Source: Candidatus Woesearchaeota archaeon (lineage in GTDB: Archaea; Nanobdellota; Nanobdellia; SCGC-AAA011-G17; UBA489). From it: a stretch of DNA of 64,000 nucleotides. The stretch is from positions 59,556 to 123,555 of the forward strand of contig CAYIXG010000004.1 of assembly GCA_964367375.1 (NCBI GenBank), read 5' to 3'. Made by a program: the position numbers and the translations under genes. The first letter of the stretch is position 1; every line of letters begins with the position of its first letter. The notes under the pieces were generated by a model. The model was not told the origin of the DNA, did not search any database, and saw nothing but the letters and a program-made list of their open reading frames with translations. Of the stretch, positions 5,950 through 62,767 are shown one piece after another.

Positions 5950-6672
5950 TTACTTCTTTGCCATTCCCCACAATAAATTAAAATATTTCCGATACTGATC
6001 CGCAATCCTTTTGCTTTGAATCACTATTCCCAACTCTGGCTCAGACCAAATAAACATTGCAACTTTGTCTCCATACACGGTTGTTGTTGCAGGGCTTTCG
6101 TATTCGTTCGGAAGATAGGCAGCCTTTGTAAAAGGCAACGTGTTTAAATATGTAATTCGTTCTTTTGCATCTGCATCATAAATGTGCCACTGCCACATCT
6201 TGTTCTTAATCCTTCGCTTATGATAAATAGACACAAAATTCTTCATCTTCTCTGACATGTCCCGCGGCACTCCAAACGTGAGCACATCCTTTCCTTCCTG
6301 CAAGATATCGTCAGTAATAGCCCTAATTCCCTTCATCCCCTCATAAATCACTGCCTTTTCCCTTTCCTTCGACAACTTTTGATCAAGAAGCAATGTCGGC
6401 AACACTGCCTCAAACTTCTTCTGCTGATCCTTCAGAAGATCCAATATTCTTTCCGGTGATGTTGACTGAAACAACTTCTTTTTTCCCTTAAATATGTAGG
6501 TGACCAATCCCTTTTCTATCAGACGATCAAGGGCATCATAAATATTCGTCCGATGCACATCAATCTTTGACGCAATAATTCCTGCTGTTGCAGATCCCAA
6601 ACGAAGCAAGGCTAAATAGACCTTCTCCTCATTCTTGCTAAAACCGAGCTCTATCAGCACATTTTCCCGCAT
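5950..6672 (-). CDS. TrmB-family transcriptional regulator (paralog 2)
   Basis: wHTH KVYLALLRLGSATAGIIASKIDVHRTNIYDALDRLIEKGLV. C-terminal ...YFNLLWGMAKK. Confidence 0.6.
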   Translation of the reverse strand: MRENVLIELGFSKNEEKVYLALLRLGSATAGIIASKIDVHRTNIYDALDRLIEKGLVTYIFKGKKKLFQSTSPERILDLLKDQQKKFEAVLPTLLLDQKLSKEREKAVIYEGMKGIRAITDDILQEGKDVLTFGVPRDMSEKMKNFVSIYHKRRIKNKMWQWHIYDADAKERITYLNTLPFTKAAYLPNEYESPATTTVYGDKVAMFIWSEPELGIVIQSKRIADQYRKYFNLLWGMAKK

Positions 6673-13445: not shown

Positions 13446-14885
13446 ATGGCTGCACTTGACATTTTTACTGTTGTCCAAGGATTTCTTACCATAATCCTTT
13501 TTGTTGTTGCGCTCTATTTCTGGCAAAAACTGCGCAGAGGATTTGATATCAGCAGCCTGAAATCCATGCGCTTATATACTATTCTCTTCCTCTTTGCCAT
13601 TCCCTTTATTATTAGCGTCCTCGCATTCATCGAAGATGACATCCGTACCCTCTTACAACACGCACTCTATTTTTTTCTCTTCTTTGCAGCATTTGTTGTG
13701 ACATTCCGCACCTATAAAAATTATATAAGCATCAGAAAACAGGATCTTCGCGACTTATATGAACAATCAGGAAAGCATCCTATTCGACTTGCCTTTGCCC
13801 GTGAAATTATTGTTCCTGAACTTCAAACACTTACTCGTAAAAGGAATGAGCTCACTAAACTCCAACGCACCATTGACCTGAAAGAAAAGACAACAAACCT
13901 CAAAGAAAAAGCACTCCAGAGAAAGGAACACAACTCTGCTGCAAAACTTAAATCATTACAGCAACAGAAAGAAGCCCTTTCCACAGAACGAAACACACTT
14001 GATAAGGAACAGATGGTTGTGAGAAACAAGAAGAGAGACGCACAACGCAACCTCCTTGATGCGCAAGCAAAAAAAGCGCACATCGAAAGAATTGTTCTTG
14101 CAATAAAAGAACGAGAACAAGCCCTTCAGAAGAAATATGAACAAGCCTCCCAAAAAGAAGCCAATCTCAGCATTGAATACAAAGAAGCAAAAGAAACAGC
14201 GTTGAAACAATTCAAAGAAGAGCTTACCGTATCAAAAAAAGACATGCAGGAAAAACTCCAGGCAAAACTTGCAGACCTTGCCAAAAAAGAAAAAACACTT
14301 GATGCGCTGGATAAAGAAATCAACGAACTCAAACGAACCCTTAAAACAAAAGAACATGATATTGCAGCGTACGAAGCACAAAAGAAGGCGGCAGAACGAA
14401 ATATTGAACGTTTGACAGAAGAACAAAAACAGCTCAAAAAAGCAGAAGAGGCATTCAAAAAAGAACGCGAATCTCTGGAACACACCCGAAGAGAACTGAG
14501 AAGCGAGTCCAAAACATTCGACAATGAACGTGCGTCCCTCCTCGCAGAACGGGCAAAAATCAAACGAAAAAACGCCCGCATCCTCACTATCGACCGAGCA
14601 CTCCAGGAAGAAAAAGAAAAACTTCGCACAAAATACGCTGAACTCGATCAACTCATGAATGATACCAGGCAGAAAGAACGAGAACTCGCACGAGAACGAG
14701 ACACATTGAAACGATTGCAGAAAGAGCTCGAACATGAAAAAGCACGATTAGCTGCAGAAAAAAAAGAAAAAAACAACGGAAATGGAATCAAAGAAAAGAA
14801 AAAACAAGGAAACGGCAAAGATTCATCAGTCGTTGCAGACGTTAAAGAGAAATTTGATTCCCTCTTCGAAATATTTGGATGGTAA
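13446..14885 (+). CDS. membrane-anchored long coiled-coil protein
   Basis: N-terminal about 90 aa hydrophobic with 2-3 TM segments, then about 380 aa K/E/Q-rich heptad-like sequence. Confidence 0.5.
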   Translation: MAALDIFTVVQGFLTIILFVVALYFWQKLRRGFDISSLKSMRLYTILFLFAIPFIISVLAFIEDDIRTLLQHALYFFLFFAAFVVTFRTYKNYISIRKQDLRDLYEQSGKHPIRLAFAREIIVPELQTLTRKRNELTKLQRTIDLKEKTTNLKEKALQRKEHNSAAKLKSLQQQKEALSTERNTLDKEQMVVRNKKRDAQRNLLDAQAKKAHIERIVLAIKEREQALQKKYEQASQKEANLSIEYKEAKETALKQFKEELTVSKKDMQEKLQAKLADLAKKEKTLDALDKEINELKRTLKTKEHDIAAYEAQKKAAERNIERLTEEQKQLKKAEEAFKKERESLEHTRRELRSESKTFDNERASLLAERAKIKRKNARILTIDRALQEEKEKLRTKYAELDQLMNDTRQKERELARERDTLKRLQKELEHEKARLAAEKKEKNNGNGIKEKKKQGNGKDSSVVADVKEKFDSLFEIFGW

Positions 14886-30975: not shown

Positions 30976-31704
30976 ATGGATTATTCGATATTTGAAGAAT
31001 TAGGATTAACGAACGCTGAGATTAAGGTGTATATTCAACTATTAAAGTTGGGATTTTCTCATGCTGGTTTAATAATAGAGAAAACAAGATTACAAACTTC
31101 AGTAGTACACAGAGCTTTAAACTCTTTAATTGAAAAAGGTCTTATTAATTATATTTTAGAAGGAAAAATAAAAACATATCAAGCAACAGAACCAGAACTT
31201 TTTTTAGATTTTATAGATGATAAGAGAATGAAATTTAAAGAAATTCTTCCTGAGCTAAAAAAAGAGCAAGATTCAGCAAAGAAAGGAGAAATAGCTACAA
31301 TATACAAAGGCAAAAAAGGATTGCAGGAAGTATATTATAAGCTAATTAATGTCAAAGCTAAAGAGTATTTAACTTATGGTGGAGGAATAGATGTTGCTAA
31401 TTTCATGAATGTTACATGGTGGAGAAATCTGCATACCAAGAGAAGAGCGAATAAATTACCTTCAAGACAAATCTTTGATAAAACAGTTAAGCCACTAGGA
31501 AAAGGGATTATAGGGATGCCATTAACGAAGATAAAATTTCTTCCTCATGAATTTGCCCAATTTCAAGAAACTGTGATAATAGGAGATTATGTAGCTATCA
31601 ATGTCTTTACTGAAAATGCTTACAGTTTTTTAATAAAGGATGCAAAAGTTGCTGAAGGATATAAAAAATATTTTGAATTATTATGGAAGATTGCAAAATC
31701 ATAA
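30976..31704 (+). CDS. TrmB-family transcriptional regulator (paralog 3, AT-rich)
   Basis: KVYIQLLKLGFSHAGLIIEKTRLQTSVVHRALNSLIEKGLI. C-terminal ...YFELLWKIAKS. Confidence 0.6.
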   Translation: MDYSIFEELGLTNAEIKVYIQLLKLGFSHAGLIIEKTRLQTSVVHRALNSLIEKGLINYILEGKIKTYQATEPELFLDFIDDKRMKFKEILPELKKEQDSAKKGEIATIYKGKKGLQEVYYKLINVKAKEYLTYGGGIDVANFMNVTWWRNLHTKRRANKLPSRQIFDKTVKPLGKGIIGMPLTKIKFLPHEFAQFQETVIIGDYVAINVFTENAYSFLIKDAKVAEGYKKYFELLWKIAKS

Positions 31705-31861: not shown

Positions 31862-32812
31862 ATGCCCAAAAAAGAGCAAACGCATGACGTTATCATCATC
31901 GGCGGAGGCATTGCCGCACACACCGCAGCACTCTACACCGCACGAGCAAACCTTGCACCATTAGTTATTTCAAGCATAGAACCAGACCAGCTGAGCATGA
32001 CAACCACTGTGGAAAACTATCCTGGATTTCCCCAAGGCGTTCAAGGCCCAGACCTTGTAAATAACTGCAAGAAACAAGCAGAACGATTTGGAGCAACATA
32101 TATCCAAGGAATAGCAGACTCTTTTACTAAACAAAAGAATATTTTTGTTGTTGGAGTTGGCAAAGCATCCTATTCTGCACGAACAGTGATCATTTCCACA
32201 GGCGCGTCTGCACGACGACTCTCCATTCCTGGAGAAAACACTTATTTTGGGAGAGGAGTATCGACCTGCGCTGTTTGTGATGCTGCACTCTATAGAGATG
32301 CAACTGTTGTCGTGATTGGCGGAGGAGATTCTGCCATGGAAGAAAGCTTAGCGTTATACAAATTCGCCAAAAAAGTGGCCATCATCCACCGCAGAAACGC
32401 ATTCCGCGCCAGCAAAATCATGCAAGACCGCATCTTTAAACTGAAAGATAAGATAACTGTCCTCTGGGATAGTGAACCTGTTGAAGTTCTTGGCAACGGC
32501 AAAATGGTTACTGGCATCAAAATTAAAAACGTCAACACACAAAAGATTACTGAACTTAAATGCGACGGCGTTTTTCTTGCCATCGGCCATGTCCCCAACA
32601 CTGCCGTTTTCAAGAATGTTGTTCCCCTTGACGCACAAGGATATGTCATTACTGATCGTTTCACCAAAACAACAACACCTGGCATCTTCGCAGCAGGAGA
32701 CTGTCAAGATCCTGTGTTCCGCCAGGCAGTCACCTCCGCAGGAACAGGATGCATGGCAGCCATCCAAGCAGAAAAATACCTGGAACATTTAAAAGCAAGC
32801 AACACCTACTAG
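31862..32812 (+). CDS. trxB: thioredoxin reductase
   Basis: DVIIIGGGIAAHTAA is the FAD GxGxxG. Redox-active CAVCDA. Second GG motif VVVIGGGDSAMEE for NADPH. Confidence 0.85.
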   Translation: MPKKEQTHDVIIIGGGIAAHTAALYTARANLAPLVISSIEPDQLSMTTTVENYPGFPQGVQGPDLVNNCKKQAERFGATYIQGIADSFTKQKNIFVVGVGKASYSARTVIISTGASARRLSIPGENTYFGRGVSTCAVCDAALYRDATVVVIGGGDSAMEESLALYKFAKKVAIIHRRNAFRASKIMQDRIFKLKDKITVLWDSEPVEVLGNGKMVTGIKIKNVNTQKITELKCDGVFLAIGHVPNTAVFKNVVPLDAQGYVITDRFTKTTTPGIFAAGDCQDPVFRQAVTSAGTGCMAAIQAEKYLEHLKASNTY

Positions 32813-32821
32813 GAGAAAACC

Positions 32822-33928
32822 ATGGTCATCTACGACGAATTCGGCCCAGAAAAAATCATTGAAGTATACAACCCTCGCGTTGGCATGAAAGGATTTCTTG
32901 TTATTGACAACACAGCTCTTGGCCCAGCAAAAGGAGGCATCCGCATGACTCCCTCAGTCAACCTTGAAGAGGTTGCACGACTCGCACGAGCCATGACCTG
33001 GAAATGCGCACTTGCAGAACTTCCCTTTGGCGGTGGAAAGAGCGGCATCATCGCAGATGACAAACAAATCACGCCACAGAAAAAGAAAGAACTCATCAAA
33101 GCATTTGCAGCATCACTCAAAGCAGTTGTTCCTGAACTTTACGTTGCAGCACCAGACATGAACACTGCGGAAGAAGAAATGAAACTCTTTGCAGACACTC
33201 TTGGCACAAAGAAGGCATGCACCGGCAAACCAGCCATCATGGGAGGCATACCCCATGAACTGGGAAGCACTGGATTTGGCGTTGTTGTTGCAACAACCGT
33301 TGGCGCAGCCTCTGCAGGCATTGACTTATCCCATGCGAGCGTTGCTATTGAAGGATTTGGAAATGTTGGTCAATTTGCAGCAAAGTTCATCACTGAAAAA
33401 GGTGCACGCCTCGTTGCCGTTTCTGACAGCAGAGGAGTCATTTTTAACTCCAAAGGACTTTCCTATGAAAAACTTATGAGCACTAAACAAGTAAAAGGAA
33501 CAGTTACTTCCTATGGTGATGGAAAAATACTACCTTCTCACGAAATAACTCGCGTCACTGCAGACATCCTCATCACTGCTGCAATCCCTGATCTTATTAC
33601 TGTTGATGAGGTTGATCATGTCAAAGCAAAACTCATCGTTGAGGGAAGCAATATTCCCATGACCTTCGAAGTTGAAGAACTCTTTCACAACAAAGGAATT
33701 TTAGTCATTCCAGACTTTGTCGCAAACGCTGGCGGCGTCATTAGCAGCTATGTTGAATATATTGGCGGCACCCCCAAACAGATGTGGAAAACAGTGGAAG
33801 AAAAAATCAAGAAAAACACTGCCCTTGTCTTGAAAGAAGCACACAAGAAACATTTACCGCCACGCACGTGCGCTCTTGAGATTGCAAAAAAACGCGTCCT
33901 GGCAAAATGCAAGAACTGCAGAATCTAA
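32822..33928 (+). CDS. Glu/Leu/Phe/Val dehydrogenase family protein (short, leucine/glutamate dehydrogenase-like)
   Basis: LGPAKGGIRMTP is the family signature around the catalytic Lys. Rossmann motif GFGNVGQ. Confidence 0.75.
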   Translation: MVIYDEFGPEKIIEVYNPRVGMKGFLVIDNTALGPAKGGIRMTPSVNLEEVARLARAMTWKCALAELPFGGGKSGIIADDKQITPQKKKELIKAFAASLKAVVPELYVAAPDMNTAEEEMKLFADTLGTKKACTGKPAIMGGIPHELGSTGFGVVVATTVGAASAGIDLSHASVAIEGFGNVGQFAAKFITEKGARLVAVSDSRGVIFNSKGLSYEKLMSTKQVKGTVTSYGDGKILPSHEITRVTADILITAAIPDLITVDEVDHVKAKLIVEGSNIPMTFEVEELFHNKGILVIPDFVANAGGVISSYVEYIGGTPKQMWKTVEEKIKKNTALVLKEAHKKHLPPRTCALEIAKKRVLAKCKNCRI

Positions 33929-34842
33929 ACTTGCTCTTGACTTGATTGCACATTTCTTTCCCTTGCAGAAAGAAGCAAATCAATACTATCCATCAACCGC
34001 TCTTCATTCCCATACACAATCACCTTCGGATTTGCACCGCCCACAATCTCAATATACGGATTTACTGCCACAGAAAAGGGAGAACATTGCATCCCAAAGG
34101 CTTCTAAAAGCTCGTTGTCACACTCTGTACCGAGAATAACCAATATCTTTGTCTGGATGCTCTGCACCTCATTCGCCCTCTTTATTCTTTGACCAAGATT
34201 TTCTGCAACACCCTCAAGATCATCCACAATCGCTTCTGCCGCATCTTGATGATACGCAAGCTGACTGTTGCCAATCACAATAAACACATTATTCTTTAGT
34301 ATTCCCTGAGCATCAAACAAGAATGCAGGATACGCCTTTAAAGAAGGTTGGTTACTTTCTCCACAATCCTGCTCACAGCTTCCAAACTCTCCGATGTCAC
34401 ACGTGTCATCTCCACACTCTGCCTCTCTTCTTGTACACACATAATTATCACACACTTGATATGCAGAACAATCATTATTTGTTACGCATGAAACACCGCA
34501 CTTTCCTTTCGCATACCCTTTTTCTTCCTCTCTTTTACATCCGTCTGCGCTTCTTACACACTCCACAAGCTTTTTCCCTTCACATACATCCTGTGCGCAC
34601 TCATCTGTACACGCCTTTTTTGTTTCTCCCTTCTTTATACTCTTCGTTGGTTCTTGTTTTGTTTCCGGTTCTTTATTTGCTTCCTTTTCTGTGAATTGTG
34701 TTTCACCTTCATTTTCATCTGGGAGCACAACTTTAATACCTTCTTCACTCTGCAATGATTTTATTAAAAAAAACGTGCTTCCAAGCACTATTCCTAGAAT
34801 GACTATTGTTATTACCCACTTTTGCGTAGAACTTAATGTCAT
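33925..34842 (-). CDS. secreted Cys-rich protein
   Basis: N-terminal TM/signal. About 24 Cys in about 100 aa (ACTDECAQDVCEGKKLVECV...). The C-terminal domain carries IVIGNS...ILVILGTE...IVGGANPKV motifs that weakly resemble archaeal S-layer N-terminal domains. Confidence 0.5.
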   Translation of the reverse strand: MTLSSTQKWVITIVILGIVLGSTFFLIKSLQSEEGIKVVLPDENEGETQFTEKEANKEPETKQEPTKSIKKGETKKACTDECAQDVCEGKKLVECVRSADGCKREEEKGYAKGKCGVSCVTNNDCSAYQVCDNYVCTRREAECGDDTCDIGEFGSCEQDCGESNQPSLKAYPAFLFDAQGILKNNVFIVIGNSQLAYHQDAAEAIVDDLEGVAENLGQRIKRANEVQSIQTKILVILGTECDNELLEAFGMQCSPFSVAVNPYIEIVGGANPKVIVYGNEERLMDSIDLLLSARERNVQSSQEQV

Positions 34843-48764: not shown

Positions 48765-49490
48765 CTATCTTTTTGCTATGTTCCAGAGAACATCAAAAAC
48801 TGCTCTTTGTGTATTTCTAATTGCCTTATCATCTATCTTTACGCCAATAATCTCCTTTTCTAAAGTGATGATTGCTATTTTATCACCAAAAATAAATGTC
48901 ATTGCTCGAACATCTTTTAACGACGTAAGAAACTTAAGATTTGTCACTTTCTTTACCTCTGGATTGGTATACCAAAATTCTGTCTTTTCCGATCTCTCCG
49001 TAAGAATTAAATTAAGTATAATGGAACGTTCTATTCTCTTTCGTGCATAACTCTTTGGAATGTGTTTTGTTTCTTCTGTTACATTTATTGGCGAACCATA
49101 TGCATATAACTCTTTTTCTTCATAAATCTCATTTAATAATGTTATAATTCCTTTTACTCCTTCGTAAATGACAACCTGCGGTCTTTTGCTAAAACTTCCC
49201 GCACGTTCTCTTAACTTTGGAATAAGATCTTTTAAAAAATTTTCTTTTAATTTTAATTGATTTAGCAACTCTTTTGGATCCACAGCACTATACAATAACT
49301 TTTTCTCTTTTTTGTATGAGGCAATAAAACCTTTCTCTGTTAGTCTGTTTAGTGTATCATAAATAGTTGACCTTGGTAGTCCTGTCCTACTTGAAATAAG
49401 AGCAACTGATGCATTTTTTAATTCCAAGGTTGCAAGATACACTCTTATTTCATTATCTGATAACCCGATCTCTCGTAATTCATCTTCCAT
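48765..49490 (-). CDS. TrmB-family transcriptional regulator (paralog 4, AT-rich)
   Basis: RVYLATLELKNASVALISSRTGLPRSTIYDTLNRLTEKGFI. C-terminal ...VFDVLWNIAKR. Confidence 0.6.
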   Translation of the reverse strand: MEDELREIGLSDNEIRVYLATLELKNASVALISSRTGLPRSTIYDTLNRLTEKGFIASYKKEKKLLYSAVDPKELLNQLKLKENFLKDLIPKLRERAGSFSKRPQVVIYEGVKGIITLLNEIYEEKELYAYGSPINVTEETKHIPKSYARKRIERSIILNLILTERSEKTEFWYTNPEVKKVTNLKFLTSLKDVRAMTFIFGDKIAIITLEKEIIGVKIDDKAIRNTQRAVFDVLWNIAKR

Positions 49491-50755: not shown

Positions 50756-51445
50756 TTATACCATCACAACCCTTGCCACTCCCTGCGCCTTCTTTATCGT
50801 TGCCTTTTCGCCCTGTTTTATTGTGAGCATTTGCGGATTATTATCAGCGCACACGTGCGCATCCCCGCGCTTTATCGTCACCACCACCTTTGTGTCCTTA
50901 TTAACCATCATCGGCTTTATTTCTTTTGTCGCGTTATTCAGCGCGATTCCTAGACCAGACTTAAATGATCTTCTTGTTATCGAATGAAAATACCCTGTCG
51001 ACCCAAAAGGCGTTGCAACAACCACACCATCACCAATAATAATTCCTATTCCGTGCTTTCTGCTCGTTTGCAGAGTAAACCGCAAGGCATTTCTCGGATC
51101 TTTATTTCGCACAGAAATCTCATTCATCGCCACCATTCTCTTTCCTTTCACAATCACTTCCACCTTATCATACTTCTTCACAAACAACTCTTTTTTTTGC
51201 GCCTTCATCAATATTGATTGCAATGACCCGTTCACACATTTTTTGCATACCTCACTTTTTCTTACCATCAACTTCGGCACTCCTGGAAATGAGCGCTCTG
51301 CACGCAACAACGTCCCATCACCACCCATGCATATCACCATCTGTGGATTCTTTGCAGCCAGAACAAAACCTGATCTTTTTACCGCATCCCTTACCCTCTG
51401 TATATCATCATCCTTATACAATGAATAAATGAGAACTCTCTTCAT
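50756..51445 (-). CDS. nadK: NAD+ kinase
   Basis: MVICMGGDGTLLRA contains the GGDGT motif. ...GSTGY. Confidence 0.65.
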   Translation of the reverse strand: MKRVLIYSLYKDDDIQRVRDAVKRSGFVLAAKNPQMVICMGGDGTLLRAERSFPGVPKLMVRKSEVCKKCVNGSLQSILMKAQKKELFVKKYDKVEVIVKGKRMVAMNEISVRNKDPRNALRFTLQTSRKHGIGIIIGDGVVVATPFGSTGYFHSITRRSFKSGLGIALNNATKEIKPMMVNKDTKVVVTIKRGDAHVCADNNPQMLTIKQGEKATIKKAQGVARVVMV

Positions 51446-51447
51446 TT

Positions 51448-52470
51448 TTATTCAATACACAATACTGGCGGATTCTTCAACAGCTCGTTCATAATCTCAA
51501 TAGCATGATTAATGTCACGCCGATGCGCAATGCTCGTTGTTGTGTGAATATTCCTGATAGGAATGCTAATCACTCCTGTTGGAATGCCACCCTTTGCTAC
51601 AGAAATGCTTAACGCATCTGTTGTTCCTAAATCAGTCACTTCAAGCTGGATTGGAATCTTCTTCTTCCTTGATATTTCCTTAAATAAGTCGTTGATGCAC
51701 TTGTTTCCAATCATATCTGCATCCTTCACCGTAATGCACGGACCACCACCCAATTTTTTTGTGTACTTGTCCATATCAAAATCGTCACACCCTGTTGTTT
51801 CCACAACCAACGCCCAATCAGGATTTATCGAATACATTGACGTTTTTGAACCGTATAACCCCACTTCCTCCTGCACTGTAAACACAAACATGAGATCTGC
51901 CTTACTCTTTTGCAACCTCTTTGCCAACTCAATTAAAATAAAGCATCCCAATCGATCATCCAATGCCTTCCCACAAATAATATCATTATTTCCCAAATAT
52001 GCCGCTTCAGCATCAATATGCATGTATTCCCCTATGCTCACACCCAATTTCTTCAATTCTTTCTTTGTCAAACCAGTGTCCACAATCAAATCATGCATCT
52101 TCGGCACTTGCGTCATCTCCTCCTCTCCTGTAATCTCTTTTGTTGTAATAATACCCCGAATAAATCCCTTCTTTGTCGGAATTTTGACGTGCTCACCCAT
52201 CAAAGTTATCGGCTCAAGACCACCGACCTCTGCACAATAAATCCAGCCCCCTTCACTTATACTTCTCACCATTAAGCCCACTTCATCCATATGCGCGACA
52301 AGCATCACCGCTGGAGATTTTCCCTTATGATGTGCAATCAGATTCCCAAACTTGTCCACTTTCACCTCATCCACATACTTCTTAATCTCCTTTTCAATCA
52401 TATGACGAATAGGCTTTTCAAAACCACTCGGACCGGAAGCATTAATCAATTTCATCAAGAATTCAGACAT
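51448..52470 (-). CDS. M42-family (TET/FrvX-like) aminopeptidase
   Basis: ...AVMLVAHMDEVGLMV... shows the co-catalytic metal-ligand pattern. 340 aa. Confidence 0.8.
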   Translation of the reverse strand: MSEFLMKLINASGPSGFEKPIRHMIEKEIKKYVDEVKVDKFGNLIAHHKGKSPAVMLVAHMDEVGLMVRSISEGGWIYCAEVGGLEPITLMGEHVKIPTKKGFIRGIITTKEITGEEEMTQVPKMHDLIVDTGLTKKELKKLGVSIGEYMHIDAEAAYLGNNDIICGKALDDRLGCFILIELAKRLQKSKADLMFVFTVQEEVGLYGSKTSMYSINPDWALVVETTGCDDFDMDKYTKKLGGGPCITVKDADMIGNKCINDLFKEISRKKKIPIQLEVTDLGTTDALSISVAKGGIPTGVISIPIRNIHTTTSIAHRRDINHAIEIMNELLKNPPVLCIE

Positions 52471-52482
52471 GTTTCCACCTCT

Positions 52483-52710
52483 TCATTCAGAAGCCACCAC
52501 CTTCATCTCCTTTCCGCAACAAATAGGAATACTCTTATCATTTCCACACATCACACACACCAACACCCCCTTCTTTACCTCCATGCTCCCCTGGCAACAC
52601 ATCGGGACTTCAATCTCTGTATCACACATTACACACACTAAATCAGTATGCACCTTCTTTTTTTGCATACTTCTTCTTGAGAATGCAGGCTTATATAAAC
52701 TTTGTGTCAA
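52483..52710 (-). CDS. tandem desulforedoxin-like metal-binding mini-protein
   Basis: Internal duplication: LVCVMCDTEIEVPMCCQGSMEV and LVCVMCGNDKSIPICCGKEMKV, each C-x2-C...CC-G-x-x-M. Confidence 0.5.
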   Translation of the reverse strand: MTQSLYKPAFSRRSMQKKKVHTDLVCVMCDTEIEVPMCCQGSMEVKKGVLVCVMCGNDKSIPICCGKEMKVVASE

Positions 52711-52716
52711 CCTTTC

Positions 52717-52959
52717 TTATTTTATACCCAGAGCCTTTTTCAATGCAGACTCGTTAAAGCCCACAATAATCTGATCCCCTACTTCAATGACAGGCACACC
52801 CCTCTGCCCAGACCTTTCAATCATTTCTGCAGCTGCCTTTTGATCCTCACCCACATTCACATCCTTAAATGCAATCTTATGCTCCTTTAACCAATCCTTC
52901 ACCTTATGACACCACGGACAGGAAGATGTTGAATAGACTTTTACAGAAGTTTTTTGCAT
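52717..52959 (-). CDS. glutaredoxin/NrdH-like small redoxin
   Basis: VYSTSSCPWCHKVKDWL...GVPVIEV. Confidence 0.75.
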   Translation of the reverse strand: MQKTSVKVYSTSSCPWCHKVKDWLKEHKIAFKDVNVGEDQKAAAEMIERSGQRGVPVIEVGDQIIVGFNESALKKALGIK

Positions 52960-53217
52960 GCTTCTTCACTCCTCTTCTTTCAACCCCCACAAGCGCTTCT
53001 TTTTATACTTTTCCTTTTCAAACACAATCTTTATTAATAACTCTCTTTCTTCTTTATTATGCATCGTCCCTATTCTCTGAATCGTTCACTTTATCAAAAT
53101 AACCAGGCACCACACGACCAACTTTCTCACCTTTTTTCTTCACGCACTCTTCCTTCTTTCCTTGACCATTCTTCATCCACACTCGATGGAGCACTGACTG
53201 AAGTACACCTCTTTCCC

Positions 53218-53853
53218 TCACTCGCTCCTCTTATTCCACCAGCCCTGCTCCTTTTTGTCCTTTATTCCGCTCAACAAAAGAAGCAAGCCCACCCCTAAAC
53301 TTCCTCCTGCGATCGTTTTTACAAACGACTTGAAAAAAGACTCTGGAAAAAGCTTTAGCAAATTATCTGTTTCCGGATTTAATATCCACAACTCATTATC
53401 AAACATCACCTCATGAAATAGAATAAAACTCTCCCTAAACTGCATACTTAATAACAGTATCCCTATCACTCCTGCTATTGTTATCACTCCTGCTTTTACC
53501 ATCACACCCTTTTTGTTTCCTTTCCCCCTCAGCAGAAGAACAACAAGAATACCCACCACACCATATGCTCCAAAGACCATTCTCTTGTATAATTCATGCA
53601 CATCCTCCATATGCCTCTTTTCTTTTTCATTCAAGAGCGTTGATGAAATTGATTCACCATTCTTAATGAACCTTACCAAAACCTCTCTTTCCTTATCTAC
53701 AGTCTCCTTCCCAAACACATCATATGCACCATTCTTCTCAAACTGACTTTCATAGAAACTCGTGCTACTCATAACAAGCTCAAGATTTAACACAACAATA
53801 ATTACTGCAAGAAGAAGACCAACACAATACTCCTTTCCCTTTCCCATCTCCAC
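53218..53853 (-). CDS. integral membrane protein (about 4 TM), unknown function
   Basis: Hydrophobic segments. No CxxC. Confidence 0.45.
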   Translation of the reverse strand: MEMGKGKEYCVGLLLAVIIVVLNLELVMSSTSFYESQFEKNGAYDVFGKETVDKEREVLVRFIKNGESISSTLLNEKEKRHMEDVHELYKRMVFGAYGVVGILVVLLLRGKGNKKGVMVKAGVITIAGVIGILLLSMQFRESFILFHEVMFDNELWILNPETDNLLKLFPESFFKSFVKTIAGGSLGVGLLLLLSGIKDKKEQGWWNKRSE

Positions 53854-53856
53854 CCC

Positions 53857-54345
53857 TTACTCAACAAGCTTCTCAATCACTGCCTTGAATTCTGCCTCTT
53901 CAGCAGCCAAATCACCCTGCACCTCATAGCCATTGCCAATACGCACATACTTACACCCAAAAATGAATGTAGGGATACTCTCCGCAGGATTAAACTTCCT
54001 AAAAACTTCCAGTTCTATTTCCGGAACACTTGACTCCTGATTTCCTGTCAGCAAATTATCATTTGTGTCCACTTCCCACTGATATGCAATAATCTTTCCT
54101 GCAGCTGCATATTCATCTACCACCTTCTTGAACGTCTCTTTAACCCACTGGCAGTGCGGACACCATGATGTGCTGAACTCCCTAATAATCGGTCTGCCTT
54201 GCTCATCCTTGCATACCTCATCTCCTGAATCTGTAAATGTATCTGTATCCTTTGTTTCAATAGTCACCCTTTTTTGCGTGTCTTGCGCACACCCCGCTAT
54301 CACTATCACGCACAAAAGAAAAAAGAACACGAAGAGCTTATTCAT
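53857..54345 (-). CDS. thioredoxin-fold lipoprotein
   Basis: Lipobox LCVIVIAGC. Active-site SWCPHCQ. Confidence 0.6.
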   Translation of the reverse strand: MNKLFVFFFLLCVIVIAGCAQDTQKRVTIETKDTDTFTDSGDEVCKDEQGRPIIREFSTSWCPHCQWVKETFKKVVDEYAAAGKIIAYQWEVDTNDNLLTGNQESSVPEIELEVFRKFNPAESIPTFIFGCKYVRIGNGYEVQGDLAAEEAEFKAVIEKLVE

Positions 54346-54347
54346 CT

Positions 54348-55178
54348 CTAATTATCCGTGTTCAAAAGCTCTGCATTGAGCACCTGCTCAAAGCTCGTGA
54401 AAGGCTGCGCACCAACGATCTTGAAGACAACCTTCTTCCCGTCCGTGCTCTCCCCATAATACAATCCGAGTTGCGGATTATGCAACTTTTTCAATGCCTC
54501 CACATCAGCTAAACTCTTGTCAACCATGGCAAAGAATGTTGGTGTTCCTGAAGCACCTGCCTTTGTTGCATCAGCATTATCCTTATCCACTTCACTCTTA
54601 TATTTCCCTGCATCGAAACAGCTGTTGAACTTGCTCACATCCAACCCTGCTTCCTGAGCCCACTTCTTATAATTTGCAGTTCCCAACTCTTGTTGGTTCT
54701 TAAAGAGCAAGTCATGATATGCCCAGAATTTTCCCTGTTCATCTGCACACTCTGCAGCCTCTGCAGCAGGATGCGCTTCAGGATGGAACGCTAATGGCAA
54801 GTCTCTAAACACAAGCTTGACTTTTCCCTTCTTCACAAAGTTCTCCTCAATCTGCGGCAAGGTTTGCGTAAATGCTCTTCCACAGAAAGGGCACTGGAAA
54901 TCGCTATACTCAATTAATGTTACTGGAGCCTTTGCATCACCCTTCACTGGATCGTCATCTTCATTCAAATCAATCTTTGCATCAATACCTGGCTCTGGCG
55001 GAAGATTTTGTGGGTTTGTTGGCGAGGGAAGTGCATCTTCCTGACTTCCTCCTCTAAACCCTCCTGTCACAATAGAAATGATAAACAATACTGCAAATAG
55101 AATAGTTCCTATTCTCCACAATGATAACTCATCAAACTCTAACTTAATCTTACGCTTCTCTTTTTGTTCTTCTGTCAT
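54348..55178 (-). CDS. DsbA-like thiol:disulfide oxidoreductase, membrane-anchored
   Basis: N-terminal TM. YSDFQCPFCGRAF is a DsbA CxxC active site. Confidence 0.7.
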   Translation of the reverse strand: MTEEQKEKRKIKLEFDELSLWRIGTILFAVLFIISIVTGGFRGGSQEDALPSPTNPQNLPPEPGIDAKIDLNEDDDPVKGDAKAPVTLIEYSDFQCPFCGRAFTQTLPQIEENFVKKGKVKLVFRDLPLAFHPEAHPAAEAAECADEQGKFWAYHDLLFKNQQELGTANYKKWAQEAGLDVSKFNSCFDAGKYKSEVDKDNADATKAGASGTPTFFAMVDKSLADVEALKKLHNPQLGLYYGESTDGKKVVFKIVGAQPFTSFEQVLNAELLNTDN

Positions 55179-57832: not shown

Positions 57833-60172
57833 TTATAATGTAAACGTGAAGGGAGCAGATGTTGCTGCAAATCCATTCACCAAGAATGGATTGTTTAAAT
57901 CAATTGTCACAAAGTTTCCATACACTGTAATACCTGCAATTGCAGGAGCATTCGGCACATCCCATGTAATTGTACCATTCCCATTTGCATCAGTATACCC
58001 AACAGTGTTTGAGAACCCTACTATCTGCGGCGTGCTTAACACCAGCTGGAACACAAAGTCATCAGTCAACGGCAATATTGCCCCACTCGGCAAGAGAATA
58101 CCTGGCGTTGTTGACAGAGACATCAAAAAGAGGTATAACAATCCTGGACCATCAGGATCTGAAATAGTGATGTTCACTTGCGATCCCACTTGCACGCTTG
58201 TCGGGGCATAGATTGAAGGTTGCGCTGCTGGCGCTGGAATTTCCTCATAGGAAAGCACGACTGCAAACGGCTGGCTTGGGAAAGGCACATTCTTCCCGCT
58301 CACCTTAATTGTATATGCACCGCTTACTGGAGTTTGGATACGCACCTGCTCCACATTATTAATTGTGTCTGTTGTGTCACCAAAAGGAGCATTCCAATCA
58401 TTCCCATTAAACACTGCCCCTGAAGGATCTGTCACAATCAAATCAATATCATTCACCAAATTCACTGGTGAAATCAATGAAGCTTCTTTATCTGTCCAGA
58501 CTAGTGTAACCTTTATCGGCTTGTTTGGCCCTGCATACACTGTGTATGTCATGTTCTGACTGGTGTTAACTCCTGTAGGCTCATCAACAAACCAGATATT
58601 GTGATGGCCTGGTAAGGAATTTGTCATATTTAACCTTCCCCAGCCTGACTCATTGCTTGGGATGCCAAAGCCCATGTCATCCGCACCATTAATCAACGAG
58701 GCTTTTACTAACGCGCTACTCGGATTTATGGAGAAATTTGTCAGATAATACTCACGCATCAAGGCTGCAACGCCTGAAACCATAGGAGCTGCCATGCTTG
58801 TTCCTGTACACTGTGCATAATTTGGCGTCAAACTATAAAATGGAGAGTTTAAGAAACACGTTCCCCATATATTATTCACGCTACTTTTTGTTGAAAAGAC
58901 TAGATAACCTGCAGCCATCAGATCAGGCTTTATCCTTCCATCACGAGCCGGGCCTCTTGACGAACTTGCATACAACGCATTAATATTAGTAGGATAAGGT
59001 GTATGAATATTCTCATGCGCGCCCACAGAGATAACATTCTTTGCAACCGCTTGCGGAGAAATCGTTCCATTTCCAGATTGCCCTGAATTTCCTGCAGCAT
59101 ACACAATGACTATATCTTTATTTGTCCATGTGAATGTATCAATACTCTGCGAATCTGGAGTGTAATTTCCATACAATCCTGAATTGATTGATCCCCAACT
59201 ATTACTGTGCACTCGCGCACCTGAAAGATATGGAGGATTAAACAATCCAGTGCTTAATGGTGTTGGCGGAAAGACAGATGAGTTTCCTAAATCATTTCCC
59301 ATTGCTTGAAATATCAACTGCGCATTCGGCGCAGCACCTGCATAACTTCCTGCAAATATGTTTGCTGTAGGAACGCTTCCTGACAAGTTCCCATTTCCCA
59401 GTGCAGTTCCTGTCACGTGCGTTCCATGCCCATTTATATCATCTGGAGACGTGCTTCCAATTGTTGCAACATCTGTAATACTTATAATTCTTCCCTCAAA
59501 ATCATCATGCATTGACCCATTATTTACTCCTGTATCAAGCCCTGTATCTGCAATTGCAATGATCTGACCATTTCCAAATAAGTTATAATTATCATGCGCC
59601 CCTTGCGCACCCGCAATCACTGTCGATGCGTCATTCAACACTTGATATTGCGGGATTTCTCCCACCCATTCGACACCCTCAATCATTGCAACCTCATCCA
59701 CATTTTTTTTGTTTACTCTAATATCAATACTGTCTTCATGTACCTCTTTGATGCTTACTCCTTTCTCATTCAACTTTTCCAGAATCCATTTCTTATCTGC
59801 ACCATCAAATAAGGTTACTCGCGCTTCAGTTCCTTTCTTTTCACTCAAAGACGCATCCCTATGATCTTTCGACGCGTATCTTCTCCATTCTTTCACTCCC
59901 TTTTTTCTCTGCAAATCATCAAGCTGACCTTCATCAGCACGCACAATATACGCAACCTTTATTTCATCTCCTTCTTTGTGCGTCACCACTCCCTCTATGC
60001 TGACACTCTCTCTTACTCCATCATACACCTCTTGCAACACAGGATATTCCACATCAACAAGATAAAACGCTTCTTCACCATTGACTGCGCCCACAGATAC
60101 TATAGATACTATCATTATAAGTGCCATTCCCAGAGCAATACCCCTTCTTTTCCTTCCTTTTTGGAATACCAT
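57833..60172 (-). CDS. secreted subtilisin-like serine protease (S8) with C-terminal beta-rich extension
   Basis: D in IIAIADTGLDTG, H in HGTHVTGT, S in GTSMAAPMVSG. Signal peptide. Confidence 0.85.
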   Translation of the reverse strand: MVFQKGRKRRGIALGMALIMIVSIVSVGAVNGEEAFYLVDVEYPVLQEVYDGVRESVSIEGVVTHKEGDEIKVAYIVRADEGQLDDLQRKKGVKEWRRYASKDHRDASLSEKKGTEARVTLFDGADKKWILEKLNEKGVSIKEVHEDSIDIRVNKKNVDEVAMIEGVEWVGEIPQYQVLNDASTVIAGAQGAHDNYNLFGNGQIIAIADTGLDTGVNNGSMHDDFEGRIISITDVATIGSTSPDDINGHGTHVTGTALGNGNLSGSVPTANIFAGSYAGAAPNAQLIFQAMGNDLGNSSVFPPTPLSTGLFNPPYLSGARVHSNSWGSINSGLYGNYTPDSQSIDTFTWTNKDIVIVYAAGNSGQSGNGTISPQAVAKNVISVGAHENIHTPYPTNINALYASSSRGPARDGRIKPDLMAAGYLVFSTKSSVNNIWGTCFLNSPFYSLTPNYAQCTGTSMAAPMVSGVAALMREYYLTNFSINPSSALVKASLINGADDMGFGIPSNESGWGRLNMTNSLPGHHNIWFVDEPTGVNTSQNMTYTVYAGPNKPIKVTLVWTDKEASLISPVNLVNDIDLIVTDPSGAVFNGNDWNAPFGDTTDTINNVEQVRIQTPVSGAYTIKVSGKNVPFPSQPFAVVLSYEEIPAPAAQPSIYAPTSVQVGSQVNITISDPDGPGLLYLFLMSLSTTPGILLPSGAILPLTDDFVFQLVLSTPQIVGFSNTVGYTDANGNGTITWDVPNAPAIAGITVYGNFVTIDLNNPFLVNGFAATSAPFTFTL

Positions 60173-60263: not shown

Positions 60264-62021
60264 ATGAACCACACACTCCCTGCGTTTATCCTTCTCAGCC
60301 TCCTCATTATCATTCCTATCGCATCCGCACAACCCACTTTCCTTGACCAAGTCTTTTATTCAGTATCCCTCCTTTTCACTGACTACTTTAAAATCACGGG
60401 ATACGTCGATCGCTTACTTCCAAACCAAGAAGCAGACGCTGATGGAGATGGCATCGCTGATATAAATGATAATTGCCCCACCATCGCAAATGCAAACCAA
60501 TTAGACAGCGATGGAAACGGCGTCGGAGATGCTTGTGATGATGGTGATGGAGACGGCGTGTATGATCTTTCAGACAACTGCCCCTCAACTGCAAATACAA
60601 ACCAGCAAGACTGCGATGATGACGGCACTGGAGACGAGTGCGATGCAACACCAGACCCTAATTGTGTTTGTAACCCCTCACCCAATTCTGCATGCTCTGG
60701 AGGAGGATTTGTAGGCGATGCTGACAGCGATGGCGTTGCTGATGACGGAGATAACTCAGGCTCAACCACCAACGCTCCTTGCCAAGGAGGAACATCCAAC
60801 TGCGATGACAACTGCAGACTTGTCGCAAACGGCCCTTTATTAGGAACTTGCAGCTCCAACGGCGCCCCCTGCTTCGCAAACGCTGCATGCCCAAACAGCG
60901 GAACCTGCAGCCGTTCCCAAGAAGAGTTAGATGATGACACTATTGGAGACGTATGCGACCCTTGCACAGACTCTGACAGCGACTCCTTTGGAGACCCTTC
61001 TTTTTTTGCAAACACCTGTTCACTCGATAACTGCCCGAGCATCAGCAATCCTAATCAATTAGACACAGACAGCGACGGCCTCGGCAATGCGTGTGATCCT
61101 TGCCCTGCAGATCCTCTCAACTCACCAGCATGCGCAAACAGCATTATCAGTGCAGGCGTTTTAGACAATGACAATGATGGCGTTCCAAACGCACAAGATA
61201 ATTGCCTTTACGATTACAACCCTAACCAGCAAGACTCAGATCAGGATGACATCGGAGACGAGTGCGACCTCTGCAGATTTGACCCCACTAATACCTGTAA
61301 TCCTAATCCTACTTTACAACCCCTCCTTCAAGACAGCGACGGCGATGGACACCATGACTTTGTAGACAACTGTGTTGATGTTCCAAACCCCACACAATCT
61401 GACGGAGACCAAGACACTGTCGGCAACGCGTGTGATGTTTGCCCAAACATTCCTGACGGCCCTTTCATTGGCACCTGCTCTGTCAGCCGCGTGCCTTGCA
61501 GCGAGGATTCAGAACCCTGCATAGACGATGACATTTGCGTCAAAGACCAGCAAGACTCGGATGATGATGGCATCGGAGACCTCTGCGAAAGCAGATTTGC
61601 TACCTCTCCAGACATTCTCGAAGAAACACCCTTATCTCCTGAAGACATCACCAGACAACGATTCACCCTTTTCCAAGAAACCTCACTTGAGGAACAAGAA
61701 GCCATCAGAAAACAGCTCGAACAATACCCTCTCGATGACCCCAGACAAATCACTGAAGCCCTTGTCAAGCTGGGATACATTGAAGCAGAACTGTACAGCA
61801 TTCAAACCAATATCAACACCCTCAAAGATTTAGATCCTGAAAATGCTCAGTATGAGGACATCCAAGCACACCTTGATTTTGTCATCACCCAAACGAATAT
61901 CCTTCAAACAGAACTTAAACACCAACGCGCCACTACTCAAAAAGTCTCACGCGTTCCTCTTTACAATCTTGGACGCCAACTCAAACAAGCCCTTAGCAGC
62001 CTTCATCGAATCTTTCAATAA
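60264..62021 (+). CDS. secreted Ca-binding protein with many thrombospondin type-3-like repeats
   Basis: More than 12 D-x-D-x-DG-x-x-D-x-C motifs (DADGDGIADINDNCP, DSDGNGVGDACD, ...). C-terminal alpha-helical region. Confidence 0.7.
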   Translation: MNHTLPAFILLSLLIIIPIASAQPTFLDQVFYSVSLLFTDYFKITGYVDRLLPNQEADADGDGIADINDNCPTIANANQLDSDGNGVGDACDDGDGDGVYDLSDNCPSTANTNQQDCDDDGTGDECDATPDPNCVCNPSPNSACSGGGFVGDADSDGVADDGDNSGSTTNAPCQGGTSNCDDNCRLVANGPLLGTCSSNGAPCFANAACPNSGTCSRSQEELDDDTIGDVCDPCTDSDSDSFGDPSFFANTCSLDNCPSISNPNQLDTDSDGLGNACDPCPADPLNSPACANSIISAGVLDNDNDGVPNAQDNCLYDYNPNQQDSDQDDIGDECDLCRFDPTNTCNPNPTLQPLLQDSDGDGHHDFVDNCVDVPNPTQSDGDQDTVGNACDVCPNIPDGPFIGTCSVSRVPCSEDSEPCIDDDICVKDQQDSDDDGIGDLCESRFATSPDILEETPLSPEDITRQRFTLFQETSLEEQEAIRKQLEQYPLDDPRQITEALVKLGYIEAELYSIQTNINTLKDLDPENAQYEDIQAHLDFVITQTNILQTELKHQRATTQKVSRVPLYNLGRQLKQALSSLHRIFQ

Positions 62022-62767
62022 ACAACTTTCTTTTTTATAAGCATCCATCCTCCAATAATGAGAGGAATGGATAGCCACTGACCCATTGAGAGACTTGCAA
62101 TTATTACCTCTGGCTCCTTTACAAACTCAATCCCAAACCTGAATACTCCATAGCCAACCAAAAAAATGCCAAACAATTGACCATCTTTCTTCACATACTT
62201 TTTACTTAGCACTGCAATTCCTAAAAGGAGAAGATTCTTTGCTGCTTCATACAACTGCGAGGGATGCCGAAAACCTTCTACATTCTGAAATTTTACCCCC
62301 CATGGAAGACTTGTGACCTTTCCATACAATTCCCCATTAATAAAATTTGCAACTCTTCCTAACGCAAGCGCAATCGTTACTGGAATCACTGCAACATCCA
62401 ATAATCGTAGCAAGGAAATTTTTCTCTTTTTACAGAAGATATAACTTACCATTAAAGCCCCTAATAAACCCCCATGAAAAGACAATCCTCCCTTCCAGAC
62501 TGCAATTATTTCCAGGGGATTTGCCAGATAATATCCTGGATTGTAAAAGATAACTTCAAAAAGACGCGCACCCCCCACCACTCCCAGAATTAACCATCCT
62601 ATTAAATTGTCAACGTCCTTTTCTTCAAGAATAAGATATCCTTTTTTTACTGCATGCCTGAGAAAAAGGTAAAAAATGACAAAACCGAGGGCATATATCA
62701 CCCCATAATATCGAATCTCCACTGGACCCAGATTTACCAACACCGGATCGATGGCATGATAGAACAT
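62015..62767 (-). CDS. lgt: prolipoprotein diacylglyceryl transferase
   Basis: N-terminus MFYHAIDPVLVNLGPVEIRYYGVIYALGFV. Lgt signature GRVANFINGELYGKVTSLPWGVKF. SFHGGLLGAL. Confidence 0.75.
   Translation of the reverse strand: MFYHAIDPVLVNLGPVEIRYYGVIYALGFVIFYLFLRHAVKKGYLILEEKDVDNLIGWLILGVVGGARLFEVIFYNPGYYLANPLEIIAVWKGGLSFHGGLLGALMVSYIFCKKRKISLLRLLDVAVIPVTIALALGRVANFINGELYGKVTSLPWGVKFQNVEGFRHPSQLYEAAKNLLLLGIAVLSKKYVKKDGQLFGIFLVGYGVFRFGIEFVKEPEVIIASLSMGQWLSIPLIIGGWMLIKKKVVY

Follow-up and report, generated by a model that had tools for sequence, protein, structure and literature searches.

Small all-β proteins in which paired cysteines hold a metal ion are the closest described counterparts of the protein considered here. 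Desulforedoxin (Dx) and the N-terminal domain of desulfoferrodoxin (Dfx; PF06397; structures 1DXG, 1DFX and 1VZG) combine a CxxC-G knuckle, a hairpin and a vicinal Cys-Cys-G-x-x-M motif, with Dx bringing two such modules together as a homodimer. Short rubredoxins (6RXN, 45 amino acids) and zinc ribbons are all-β proteins with two CxxC(G) knuckles, and archaeal Trm112 (6ZXW chain H; PF03966/NF038101), of about 60 amino acids, carries L-x-C-x2-C ... G-x-L-x-C-x2-C over 41 residues. The Cys-rich region of PriA (8FAK), the double zinc ribbon of E. coli YfgJ (2JNE, PF07191) and the haloarchaeal HVO_2753-type micro-proteins (PF07754) are small, β-rich modules with four Cys pairs, all CxxC or CPxCG, in about 50 residues and with two metals expected. 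Here we describe a mini-protein of 61 amino acids encoded in a stretch of archaeal DNA (contig CAYIXG010000004.1; its 64,000 nucleotides are called the window, and positions are counted from its first letter) which shares features with each of these proteins. It differs from Dx in a hairpin of x8 instead of x15, in the fusion of its two modules in tandem through a conserved 12-residue hairpin, and in belonging to a family where either position of the dyad can be His. Compared with the short rubredoxins, it adds two vicinal dyads, for eight ligands, and an internal duplication, and the rubredoxin aromatic core is left unaligned; Trm112, for its part, lacks both CC dyads and an internal repeat, and no methyltransferase is found in the context of the mini gene. 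Unlike PriA, YfgJ and the HVO_2753-type proteins, the mini-protein has a vicinal dyad with G-x-x-M as every second motif.

The picture that we favor, with moderate confidence, is one of two adjacent and functionally separate gene units, with the mini-protein being a two-metal protein of the mini zinc-ribbon/rubredoxin type. It would be a duplicated β-meander, each repeat offering a CxxC knuckle and, eight residues on, a (C/H)(C/H) dyad with G-x-x-M, and its eight ligands would hold two metal ions in rubredoxin/zinc-ribbon-type sites, making it a short-hairpin analogue of the desulforedoxin module. The gene and its modules are placed as follows:

52483-52668, minus strand: mini-protein, 61 amino acids, beginning MQKKKVHTDLVC, with two CxxC-x8-CC-G-x2-M modules
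52582-52635, minus strand: module 1 of the mini-protein, in translation C12-V-M-C15 ... P22-M-C24-C25-Q-G-S-M29
52504-52557, minus strand: module 2 of the mini-protein, in translation C38-V-M-C41-G ... P48-I-C50-C51-G-K-E-M55

A first-pass annotation of this DNA had described a protein of 75 amino acids with two copies of C-x2-C...C-C-G-x-x-M; the two copies stand, and the length is corrected to 61. The 75-residue form, from a TTG start (open reading frame [ORF] 52483-52710), almost certainly starts too far upstream; the ATG at 52668 is the start in homologues and in independent gene calls. Support for the 61-residue start comes from the homologues P0002, L022, L040 and L042 and from gene calls on identical ENA and Logan contigs, and close homologues begin about 10 residues before the first Cys (MLKKHSDLVC in P0002, MPKKH(A/S)DL(V/T)C in L040 and L042). 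The public NCBI/ENA version of 48 amino acids (52483-52626, P0001) has its start Met inside the first CxxC and is probably a mis-call, because one invariant ligand is thereby removed. The two halves of the mini-protein are identical at 11 of 26 positions, and we regard the protein as a true internal tandem duplication. All eight Cys positions are kept in the closest homologues; among 73 aligned family members the CxxC cysteines C12, C15, C38 and C41 are invariant, and conservation reaches at least 90% at P22, C24, M29 and C51. At the sequence level, this conservation of cysteines is far beyond chance.

The family to which the mini-protein belongs is small in protein length and wide in distribution. 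A HMMER search with a two-sequence profile against 1.84 billion representatives returned 40 proteins at E<=1e-3, all of 53-93 amino acids, and a profile search of a 5.8-billion-cluster set returned 42 clusters at 90% identity, none with a Pfam domain. The latter are named 'hypothetical' and, once, 'uncharacterized Zn ribbon protein', and include metagenome-assembled genomes (MAGs) of Spirochaetaceae and Heimdallarchaeota. A single module, written as a degenerate DNA pattern, was also searched for in species-representative genomes, about 15 chance matches in GC-rich bacteria being discarded by eye; the members found in this manner come from Woesearchaeota, Micrarchaeota (including Pelearchaeum), Iainarchaeum and Thorarchaeota, together with many Spirochaetota, Sericytochromatia and Halobacteroidaceae (Frackibacter, Fuchsiella). 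As judged from these matches, the mini gene is real, and the family is scattered over DPANN, Asgard, Spirochaetota, Sericytochromatia and Halobacteroidaceae. The family is unannotated: neither Pfam nor NCBIfam has a model for it, its structure has not been solved, and no literature on it was found under desulforedoxin-like or desulforedoxin/zinc-ribbon descriptions. Spirochaete homologues have a C-terminal ...IKKEIFG extension, and their module 1 dyad is often CH.

Across the family the architecture is CxxC-x8-[C/H][C/H]-G-x2-M, x12, repeat. The spacing from knuckle 1 to dyad 1 is x8 in 84 of 87 sequences, that from dyad 1 to knuckle 2 is x12 in 74 of 87, and that from knuckle 2 to dyad 2 is x8 in 78 of 87. 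The dyads are distributed as follows:

Module 1 dyad: CC 43, CH 22, HC 7, HH 1
Module 2 dyad: CC 62, CH 0, HC 8, HH 0

A dyad of CH, HC or HH is thus present in about 40% of family members. Because Cys and His are swapped at otherwise fixed positions, the vicinal dyad residues are probably metal ligands and not disulfides, in a protein that would itself bind metal. Zn sites show exchange of this kind more typically than rubredoxin-type Fe sites do, and it makes Fe(Cys)4 unlikely as a family-wide property; with His in the dyad of roughly 40% of members, an obligate Fe(Cys)4 centre is not supported.

The proposed likeness to the Fe(Cys)4 motif of Dx, in contrast, is borne out, and it extends beyond the cysteines. 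The unit consensus (L/F)-x-C-x-x-C-G-x5-P-x-C-C-G-x-x-M can be set beside Y-K-C-E-L-C-G-x13-L-V-C-C-G-E-D-M of Dx; in a logo of 141 units, G follows CxxC in 98, G follows the dyad in 92, and M stands at +4 in 120; and module 2 of the window protein carries the motif as CVMCG...CCGKEM. Such a likeness could mean that the mini-protein is genuinely a tandem desulforedoxin in one chain, its two distorted Fe(Cys)4 centres making up a pseudo-dimer that serves as a redox carrier with the glutaredoxin-like protein encoded nearby and, in relatives, with an NAD(P)H flavoprotein. CxxCG...(P/L)xCCGxxM matches both Dx and Dfx (CELCG...LVCCGEDM and CTHCG...LVCCGEPM), weak PF06397 matches occur in 10 of 41 family members, one of them aligning a whole module to profile positions 7-35, and the named carriers are mostly MAGs of lineages usually considered anaerobic (Woesearchaeota, Spirochaetota, Halobacteroidaceae). 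We nevertheless consider this reading unlikely. The 23-bit cutoff of PF06397 is never reached: the best family member scores 19.2 bits, the other individually scanned matches 14.6 and 13.5 bits, and the window protein has no match at E<=1. An unrelated model, the Sec23/24 zinc finger, is the better match in 20 of 41 members. Neither Dx nor Dfx is retrieved from PDB sequences by the family profile even at E<=10, and hhalign of the 141-unit profile against a small profile of three PDB-derived Dx/Dfx sequences, a weak comparison, gives a probability of 2-16% with the cysteines out of register. Cys-to-His exchange is seen at both dyad positions, and we know of no natural Dx centre with such an exchange.

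Ligand spacing also bears on this point. The Dx/Dfx arrangement C-x2-C-x15-C-C was confirmed on PDB sequences, but both modules of the window protein have x8. The exact Dx spacing of x15 occurs only in module 2 of three distant members, module 1 staying at x8; the x15 variants are L019/L028/L036 (Sericytochromatia) and L012/L044 (Frackibacter, Fuchsiella). Their spacing speaks for a tandem desulforedoxin, although as a bridge to PF06397 these variants were rejected, since PF06397 does not match them. The Frackibacter protein passes the cutoff of the TiaS zinc-ribbon model (31.8 against 27.3 bits) over the segment from dyad 1 to knuckle 2. Dx is itself classified as a rubredoxin-like/zinc-ribbon-type fold, so that zinc ribbon and Dx fold do not form a clean pair of alternatives. 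By its sequence, the mini-protein resembles Dx at the level of the motif, without demonstrable membership of the Dx family.

Structure prediction of the single chain with AlphaFold2 (AF2) and a 73-sequence alignment gave an all-β model, a continuous eight-strand meander with a mean confidence (pLDDT) of 83.7, compared with 60 for the single sequence. In this model knuckle 1, dyad 1, knuckle 2 and dyad 2 lie at alternate turns. A Foldseek search of the model against the PDB gave no significant match: nothing fell below E=0.5, and at the head of the list stand zinc modules of MCM and the Cys-rich region of PriA. The highest 'prob' values, though non-significant, belong to Dfx (1dfx, 0.44, and 2ji2, 0.41), a point on the side of the tandem desulforedoxin, and TFS4 is also among the non-significant neighbours. 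Modules of the PriA/YfgJ/HVO_2753 type are the top Foldseek and Pfam neighbours, all below significance. Against PDB sequences, the family profile matched archaeal Trm112 (6zxw_H, a borderline 4.8e-4), 45-residue rubredoxins (weakly, at 0.004-0.013) and assorted zinc fingers, and no match to the rubredoxin model PF00301 was found. The best neighbours of the mini-protein in sequence and in fold are thus all Cys4 metal modules, and the family is best described as Cys4 modules of the rubredoxin/zinc-ribbon type that carry a vicinal dyad like that of Dx, and is not categorically new.

Three ways of sharing the eight ligands between two metals would fit the pseudo-two-fold repeat. First, in a sequential pairing each module would hold its own metal, as in Dx; we give this about as much credence as all other arrangements together, and it is favored because extension of the hairpin from x8 to x15 is tolerated within a module. 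Second, in a nested pairing, known in the PriA and DnaJ Cys-rich regions, the CxxC of one repeat would join the CC of the other, which we think rather improbable. Finally, in a crossed pairing, to which we assign a similarly low likelihood, CxxC would pair with CxxC and dyad with dyad, as in Trm112 or rubredoxin. The invariance of CxxC and the HMMER alignments favor crossed pairing; the AF2 meander, which would put all four motifs on one edge and make neighbours the natural partners, favors sequential or nested pairing over it.

Crossed pairing is also the basis of a distinct explanation for the whole protein, in which the four CxxC cysteines form one Cys4 site, the dyads form a second, accessory site, and the protein acts as a Trm112-like adaptor or activator. 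The best PDB matches align the first and second CxxC to the knuckles of Trm112 and of the 45-residue rubredoxins, the contrast between invariant CxxC and variable dyads is neatly explained, and the coupling of the mini gene is always tight and upstream of a housekeeping enzyme gene, either an M42 aminopeptidase or a phosphoribosyl pyrophosphate (PRPP) synthetase. We regard this explanation as quite unlikely: the window protein scores only 12.1 bits with NF038101 (Trm112_arch; cutoff 77, E 0.17), PF03966 matches weakly one of 10 individually scanned members (E 0.056), the AF2 meander would make each knuckle and the adjacent dyad natural partners, and the downstream enzymes vary by lineage, none being a methyltransferase.

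The separation of the locus into two units rests on the arrangement of the genes around the mini gene, which are the following:

54348-55178, minus strand: membrane-anchored DsbA-like thiol:disulfide oxidoreductase, 276 amino acids, FQCPFCG (CPFC), first gene of the exported unit
53857-54345, minus strand: thioredoxin-fold lipoprotein, 162 amino acids, lipobox VIAGC, WCPHC (CPHC)
53218-53853, minus strand: Lit/TIGR01906-family membrane protein, 211 amino acids, four hydrophobic segments
52960-53217, minus strand: intergenic gap of 258 nucleotides with a TATA-like box, a probable unit boundary
52717-52959, minus strand: cytoplasmic Cp9/YruB-type glutaredoxin-like redoxin, 80 amino acids, SCPWC (CPWC)
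51448-52470, minus strand: M42 (TET-type) aminopeptidase, PF05343 3.4e-85
50756-51445, minus strand: NAD kinase, closing the cytoplasmic unit, PF20143 3e-7 and NF002255 7e-14

The five consecutive minus-strand genes named in the first-pass annotation, from the DsbA-like gene to the mini gene, were found as ORFs exactly where it had placed them. In the exported unit the genes are 2-9 nucleotides apart (the thioredoxin lipoprotein gene starts 2 nucleotides past the DsbA-like stop); in the cytoplasmic unit the glutaredoxin-like and mini genes are about 50 nucleotides apart (48-52), and 12 nucleotides separate the mini stop from the M42 start. Gaps within both units are 2-48 nucleotides, against 258 between them. 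A TATA-like aaagtttatatatgg lies about 55 nucleotides upstream of the DsbA-like ATG, and a TATA-like aaaagtataaaaag about 50 nucleotides upstream of the glutaredoxin-like ATG, inside the 258-nucleotide gap; a purine-rich stretch precedes each box. Because of this gap and the box ahead of each group, we infer two transcription units, an exported one (DsbA-like, thioredoxin lipoprotein, Lit-like) and a cytoplasmic one (glutaredoxin-like, mini-protein, M42, NAD kinase). The five genes had been taken for a single functional cluster, which this boundary would divide between the Dsb-type genes and the glutaredoxin/mini unit. The cluster is further undercut by the linkage of the mini gene to glutaredoxin or Dsb genes, kept only in a few close relatives, and by the nature of the glutaredoxin, which is a reductant of the Cp9/YruB type and no component of oxidative folding.

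Comparison of loci shows couplings that differ by lineage. In all seven Woesearchaeota-type loci (the window, L018, L022, L040, L042, L050 and L062) the mini gene lies directly upstream of the M42 gene, its one neighbour kept in every one of them, with a gap of 12-23 nucleotides where measured, and the NAD kinase gene follows M42 where the locus reaches far enough, being syntenic in L040, L050 and L062. A glutaredoxin-like gene is upstream of the mini gene in four of the seven, the distance being 52 nucleotides in the window and 0.75, 1.9 and 2.5 kb in the other three. A flavoprotein of 228 amino acids with FAD_binding_6 and NAD_binding_1 domains is encoded directly upstream of the mini gene in L022 (404-1090) and L042 (726-1412) and about 0.6 kb upstream in L040 (1567-2259); its best NCBIfam matches are the BenC and MmoC reductase modules, without their ferredoxin domains, and Fre. 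The gene order of L022 (glutaredoxin, flavoprotein, mini, M42), which up to the mini gene is also that of L042, would suit a tandem desulforedoxin fed by this ferredoxin-NADP reductase (FNR)-like flavoprotein without an Fe-S domain, but the flavoprotein gene is absent from the window and L050, and no redox neighbour of the mini gene was found outside Woesearchaeota in the loci examined. The pair of thioredoxin lipoprotein and Lit-like genes is repeated only in L042, with a subtilase in place of the DsbA-like gene. In spirochaetes the mini gene is 0-9 nucleotides upstream of a PRPP-synthetase-like gene in nine loci (L007, L008, L013, L020, L031, L032, L035, L045 and L064), and an NAD-dependent epimerase gene precedes it in seven. 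A large metagenomic scaffold carries the mini gene in divergent orientation to an IscS-NifU-TusA-DsrE group, and in Micrarchaeota, Sericytochromatia and others its neighbours are unrelated (TPR, MFS, TrpA, aminotransferase).

The M42 coupling enters into a further explanation, in which the mini-protein binds a soft metal or metalloid (Cu(I), Cd, Hg or As(III)), its dithiols and Met serving as a buffer or chaperone, possibly for the downstream metallo-aminopeptidase. MerA and ArsD use CC dyads to bind Hg and As, M42 peptidases are di-metal enzymes, and the vicinal Cys-Cys dyads of the mini-protein are accompanied by a Met, at least 90% conserved, four residues downstream. However, Dx has the same G-x-x-M after its dyad, where the Met is not a ligand, no recognisable metal-resistance or transporter genes lie beside the mini gene in the examined loci, and the gene coupled to it in spirochaetes encodes PRPP synthetase, no transition-metal enzyme. 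As an account of the whole protein, we hold this to be very improbable.

Several observations weigh against the picture that we favor. The FNR-like flavoprotein without an Fe-S domain in three close relatives favors a redox carrier over a structural Zn protein, no neighbour of the mini gene is conserved across lineages among the loci examined, and the TATA-like boxes were assigned by eye from sequence, without an archaeal promoter model. With these set against the evidence above, we consider a structural Zn scaffold or adaptor micro-protein about evenly balanced between true and false, on the basis of the Cys/His exchange and of zinc-ribbon neighbours. An Fe(Cys)4 electron carrier, to which the Dx-like motif, the rubredoxin matches and the flavoprotein next door in relatives point, is possible but doubtful, and binding of some other soft metal is less likely still. 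An unlikely but more specific variant is that the mini-protein is a hitherto unrecognised, minimal single-chain relative of Dx: a 60-residue meander holding two centres, either Fe(Cys)4 or Fe(Cys)3His, with which genome-reduced anaerobes (for example DPANN and sediment spirochaetes) would carry electrons at low cost. In Woesearchaeota its reductant would be an NAD(P)H flavoprotein of the BenC/Fre type whose ferredoxin domain was lost. In another form of this variant, CxxC and CC of different repeats would be paired in a 'domain-swapped' Dx architecture not seen before. If the protein does bind iron, no smaller rubredoxin-type carrier with two centres would be known, and the rare vicinal-Cys (Dx-type) coordination would reach beyond sulfate reducers to DPANN, Asgard archaea and spirochaetes. 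With zinc as its metal, it would be a well-defined and widespread addition to the poorly understood prokaryotic zinc-finger micro-proteins. In either case, the lineage-specific couplings (M42 peptidase and NAD kinase, or PRPP synthetase) make the hunt for a partner feasible.

Returning to the favored picture of two units, the cytoplasmic one (52959-50756) would have a housekeeping function, combining the glutaredoxin-like reductant, the mini-protein, the M42 peptidase and NAD kinase; no signal sequence is present in the glutaredoxin-like protein or in the mini-protein. The glutaredoxin with CPWC that had been recognised here keeps its fold (PF00462 1.4e-19) and motif and can be refined to the Cp9/YruB type, passing TIGR02196 (GlrX_YruB) with 93.9 bits against a cutoff of 88.55. 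The prevalent motif of Cp9 homologues is CP[YW]C, and Cp9 passes electrons from an NADH-dependent thioredoxin reductase-like reductase to peroxiredoxin (PMC3720550). Because the characterised member of this group is a reductant, the glutaredoxin-like protein is, by analogy, a cytoplasmic reductant standing outside oxidative folding. The window encodes a candidate for its own reductant:

31862-32812, plus strand: thioredoxin-disulfide reductase (CAVC), TIGR01292 364.4 bits against a cutoff of 343.45, PF07992 8e-47

This enzyme, of the classical low-Mr kind, likely reduces the Cp9/YruB-type redoxin, a functional link that would span 20 kb, its gene lying that far from the glutaredoxin-like gene and outside the cluster. 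The arrangement resembles the Cp34-Cp9-Cp20 system of Clostridium pasteurianum (thioredoxin reductase-like reductase, YruB/Cp9 redoxin and peroxiredoxin) in its YruB-family glutaredoxin with CP[YW]C and in a thioredoxin reductase within the window. It differs from that system in that the reductase gene is outside the operon and that no peroxiredoxin is found among the annotated ORFs of the window.

The exported unit (55178-53218) would be an extracytoplasmic thiol-disulfide system for Cys-rich secreted proteins. Its first two members agree with their initial description: the DsbA-like protein has CPFC, one N-terminal transmembrane segment and scores above cutoff with PF13462 (1.2e-31; 110.6 bits, cutoff 23.2) and PF01323 (3.2e-18; 66.6 bits, cutoff 25.6), and the thioredoxin-fold lipoprotein has its lipobox VIAGC, WCPHC and a PF00085 match of 3.8e-7, along with a weak match to StoA (1.5e-5). 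With the Rcas_1661-family model NF041057 the DsbA-like protein scores 139 bits, under the cutoff of 190, and its charged N-terminus and single N-terminal segment predict an N-in/C-out, extracytoplasmic topology. The CPHC site of the lipoprotein is DsbA-like, and its lipid anchor would probably be added by the following enzyme of the window:

62015-62767, minus strand: bacterial-type Lgt (prolipoprotein diacylglyceryl transferase), PF01790 1.7e-74, TIGR00544 206 bits against a cutoff of 118.9

The third member, first listed as an unnamed protein with four transmembrane segments, does have four hydrophobic segments and can be given a name, matching PF07314 (6.4e-29; 101.7 bits, cutoff 24). It falls short of TIGR01906 (73.3 bits, cutoff 74.8) and of the Lit equivalog NF051877 (55.2 bits, cutoff 400), and is thus predicted to be of the Lit family at superfamily level only; its likely start is the ATG at 53847, as in gene calls on identical contigs. 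A role as a DsbB/VKOR-type analogue was rejected, because a single Cys allows no thiol relay of that type, and the protein would more plausibly be tied to the lipoprotein than to redox chemistry. The Lit-like gene lies directly downstream of that of the lipobox-bearing thioredoxin lipoprotein both here and in a second Woesearchaeota genome (L042, 3801-4433), and a gene of a lipoprotein transacylase family is odd in an organism expected to have ether lipids.

As had been noted, no VKOR or DsbB homologue is recognisable: the 64-kb window contains no plausible gene-length ORF with several transmembrane segments and CxxC, and a few small ones (for example 13956-14210 and 14232-14735) were judged spurious, overlapping the opposite-strand ORF 13446-14885. 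The Cys-rich secreted proteins pointed to as possible substrates are present, namely one of 305 amino acids with 16 Cys and no Pfam match (33925-34842, minus strand) and a TSP3-repeat protein of 585 amino acids with 34 Cys (60264-62021, plus strand). Cys-rich secreted proteins adjoin an S8 subtilase (57833-60172, minus strand), and a Cys-rich membrane-anchored protein of similar kind is encoded upstream of the mini gene in L050 (4836-5828). Gram-positive DsbA-type systems (BdbD/StoA-like) similarly pair an extracytoplasmic CPxC protein of Trx_4/DSBA fold with a CxxC lipoprotein; here, in contrast, the host is archaeal, no BdbC, DsbB or VKOR partner is found in the window, and a Lit-family gene is part of the same putative transcription unit. 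The DsbA-like, thioredoxin, glutaredoxin, thioredoxin reductase, M42 and NAD kinase proteins are all ordinary members of known families.

The host is, by its archaeal genes and closest homologues, a Woesearchaeota-like DPANN archaeon. The window encodes FttA/aCPSF1 with a KH domain, aIF5B, an archaeal/eukaryal-type GluRS and a proteasome subunit, a 132-kb contig from the 0.1-µm fraction of Hainich groundwater carries identical sequence, and the closest homologues of the mini-protein and of Lgt are from Candidatus Woesearchaeota/Nanoarchaeota MAGs. In such an ultra-small archaeon, the Dsb-type genes would represent extracytoplasmic thiol chemistry and lipoprotein machinery of bacterial style. 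The Lgt of the window contains GGLSFHGG, GRVANFINGELYG and RHPSQLYE, which we take to resemble conserved Lgt motifs, and in many Woesearchaeota/Nanoarchaeota MAGs proteins 47-62% identical to it already bear the name Lgt. By its profile matches it is a bona fide Lgt of bacterial type, encoded on an archaeal contig. A 2025 paper in Nature Communications stated that Lgt homologues had not been identified in archaea and described AliA/AliB instead (PMC12462473). The question is raised of whether Lgt entered DPANN by horizontal gene transfer.

Elsewhere in the window, Rfam and tRNA scans gave no matches, and four TrmB-family helix-turn-helix regulators of 240-274 amino acids are encoded (598-1422, 5950-6672, 30976-31704 and 48765-49490). 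The GC skew of the plus strand is negative throughout (-0.04 to -0.51), whichever strand codes, and strongest at 52001-54000, and many long spurious antisense ORFs arise from purine-rich coding strands.

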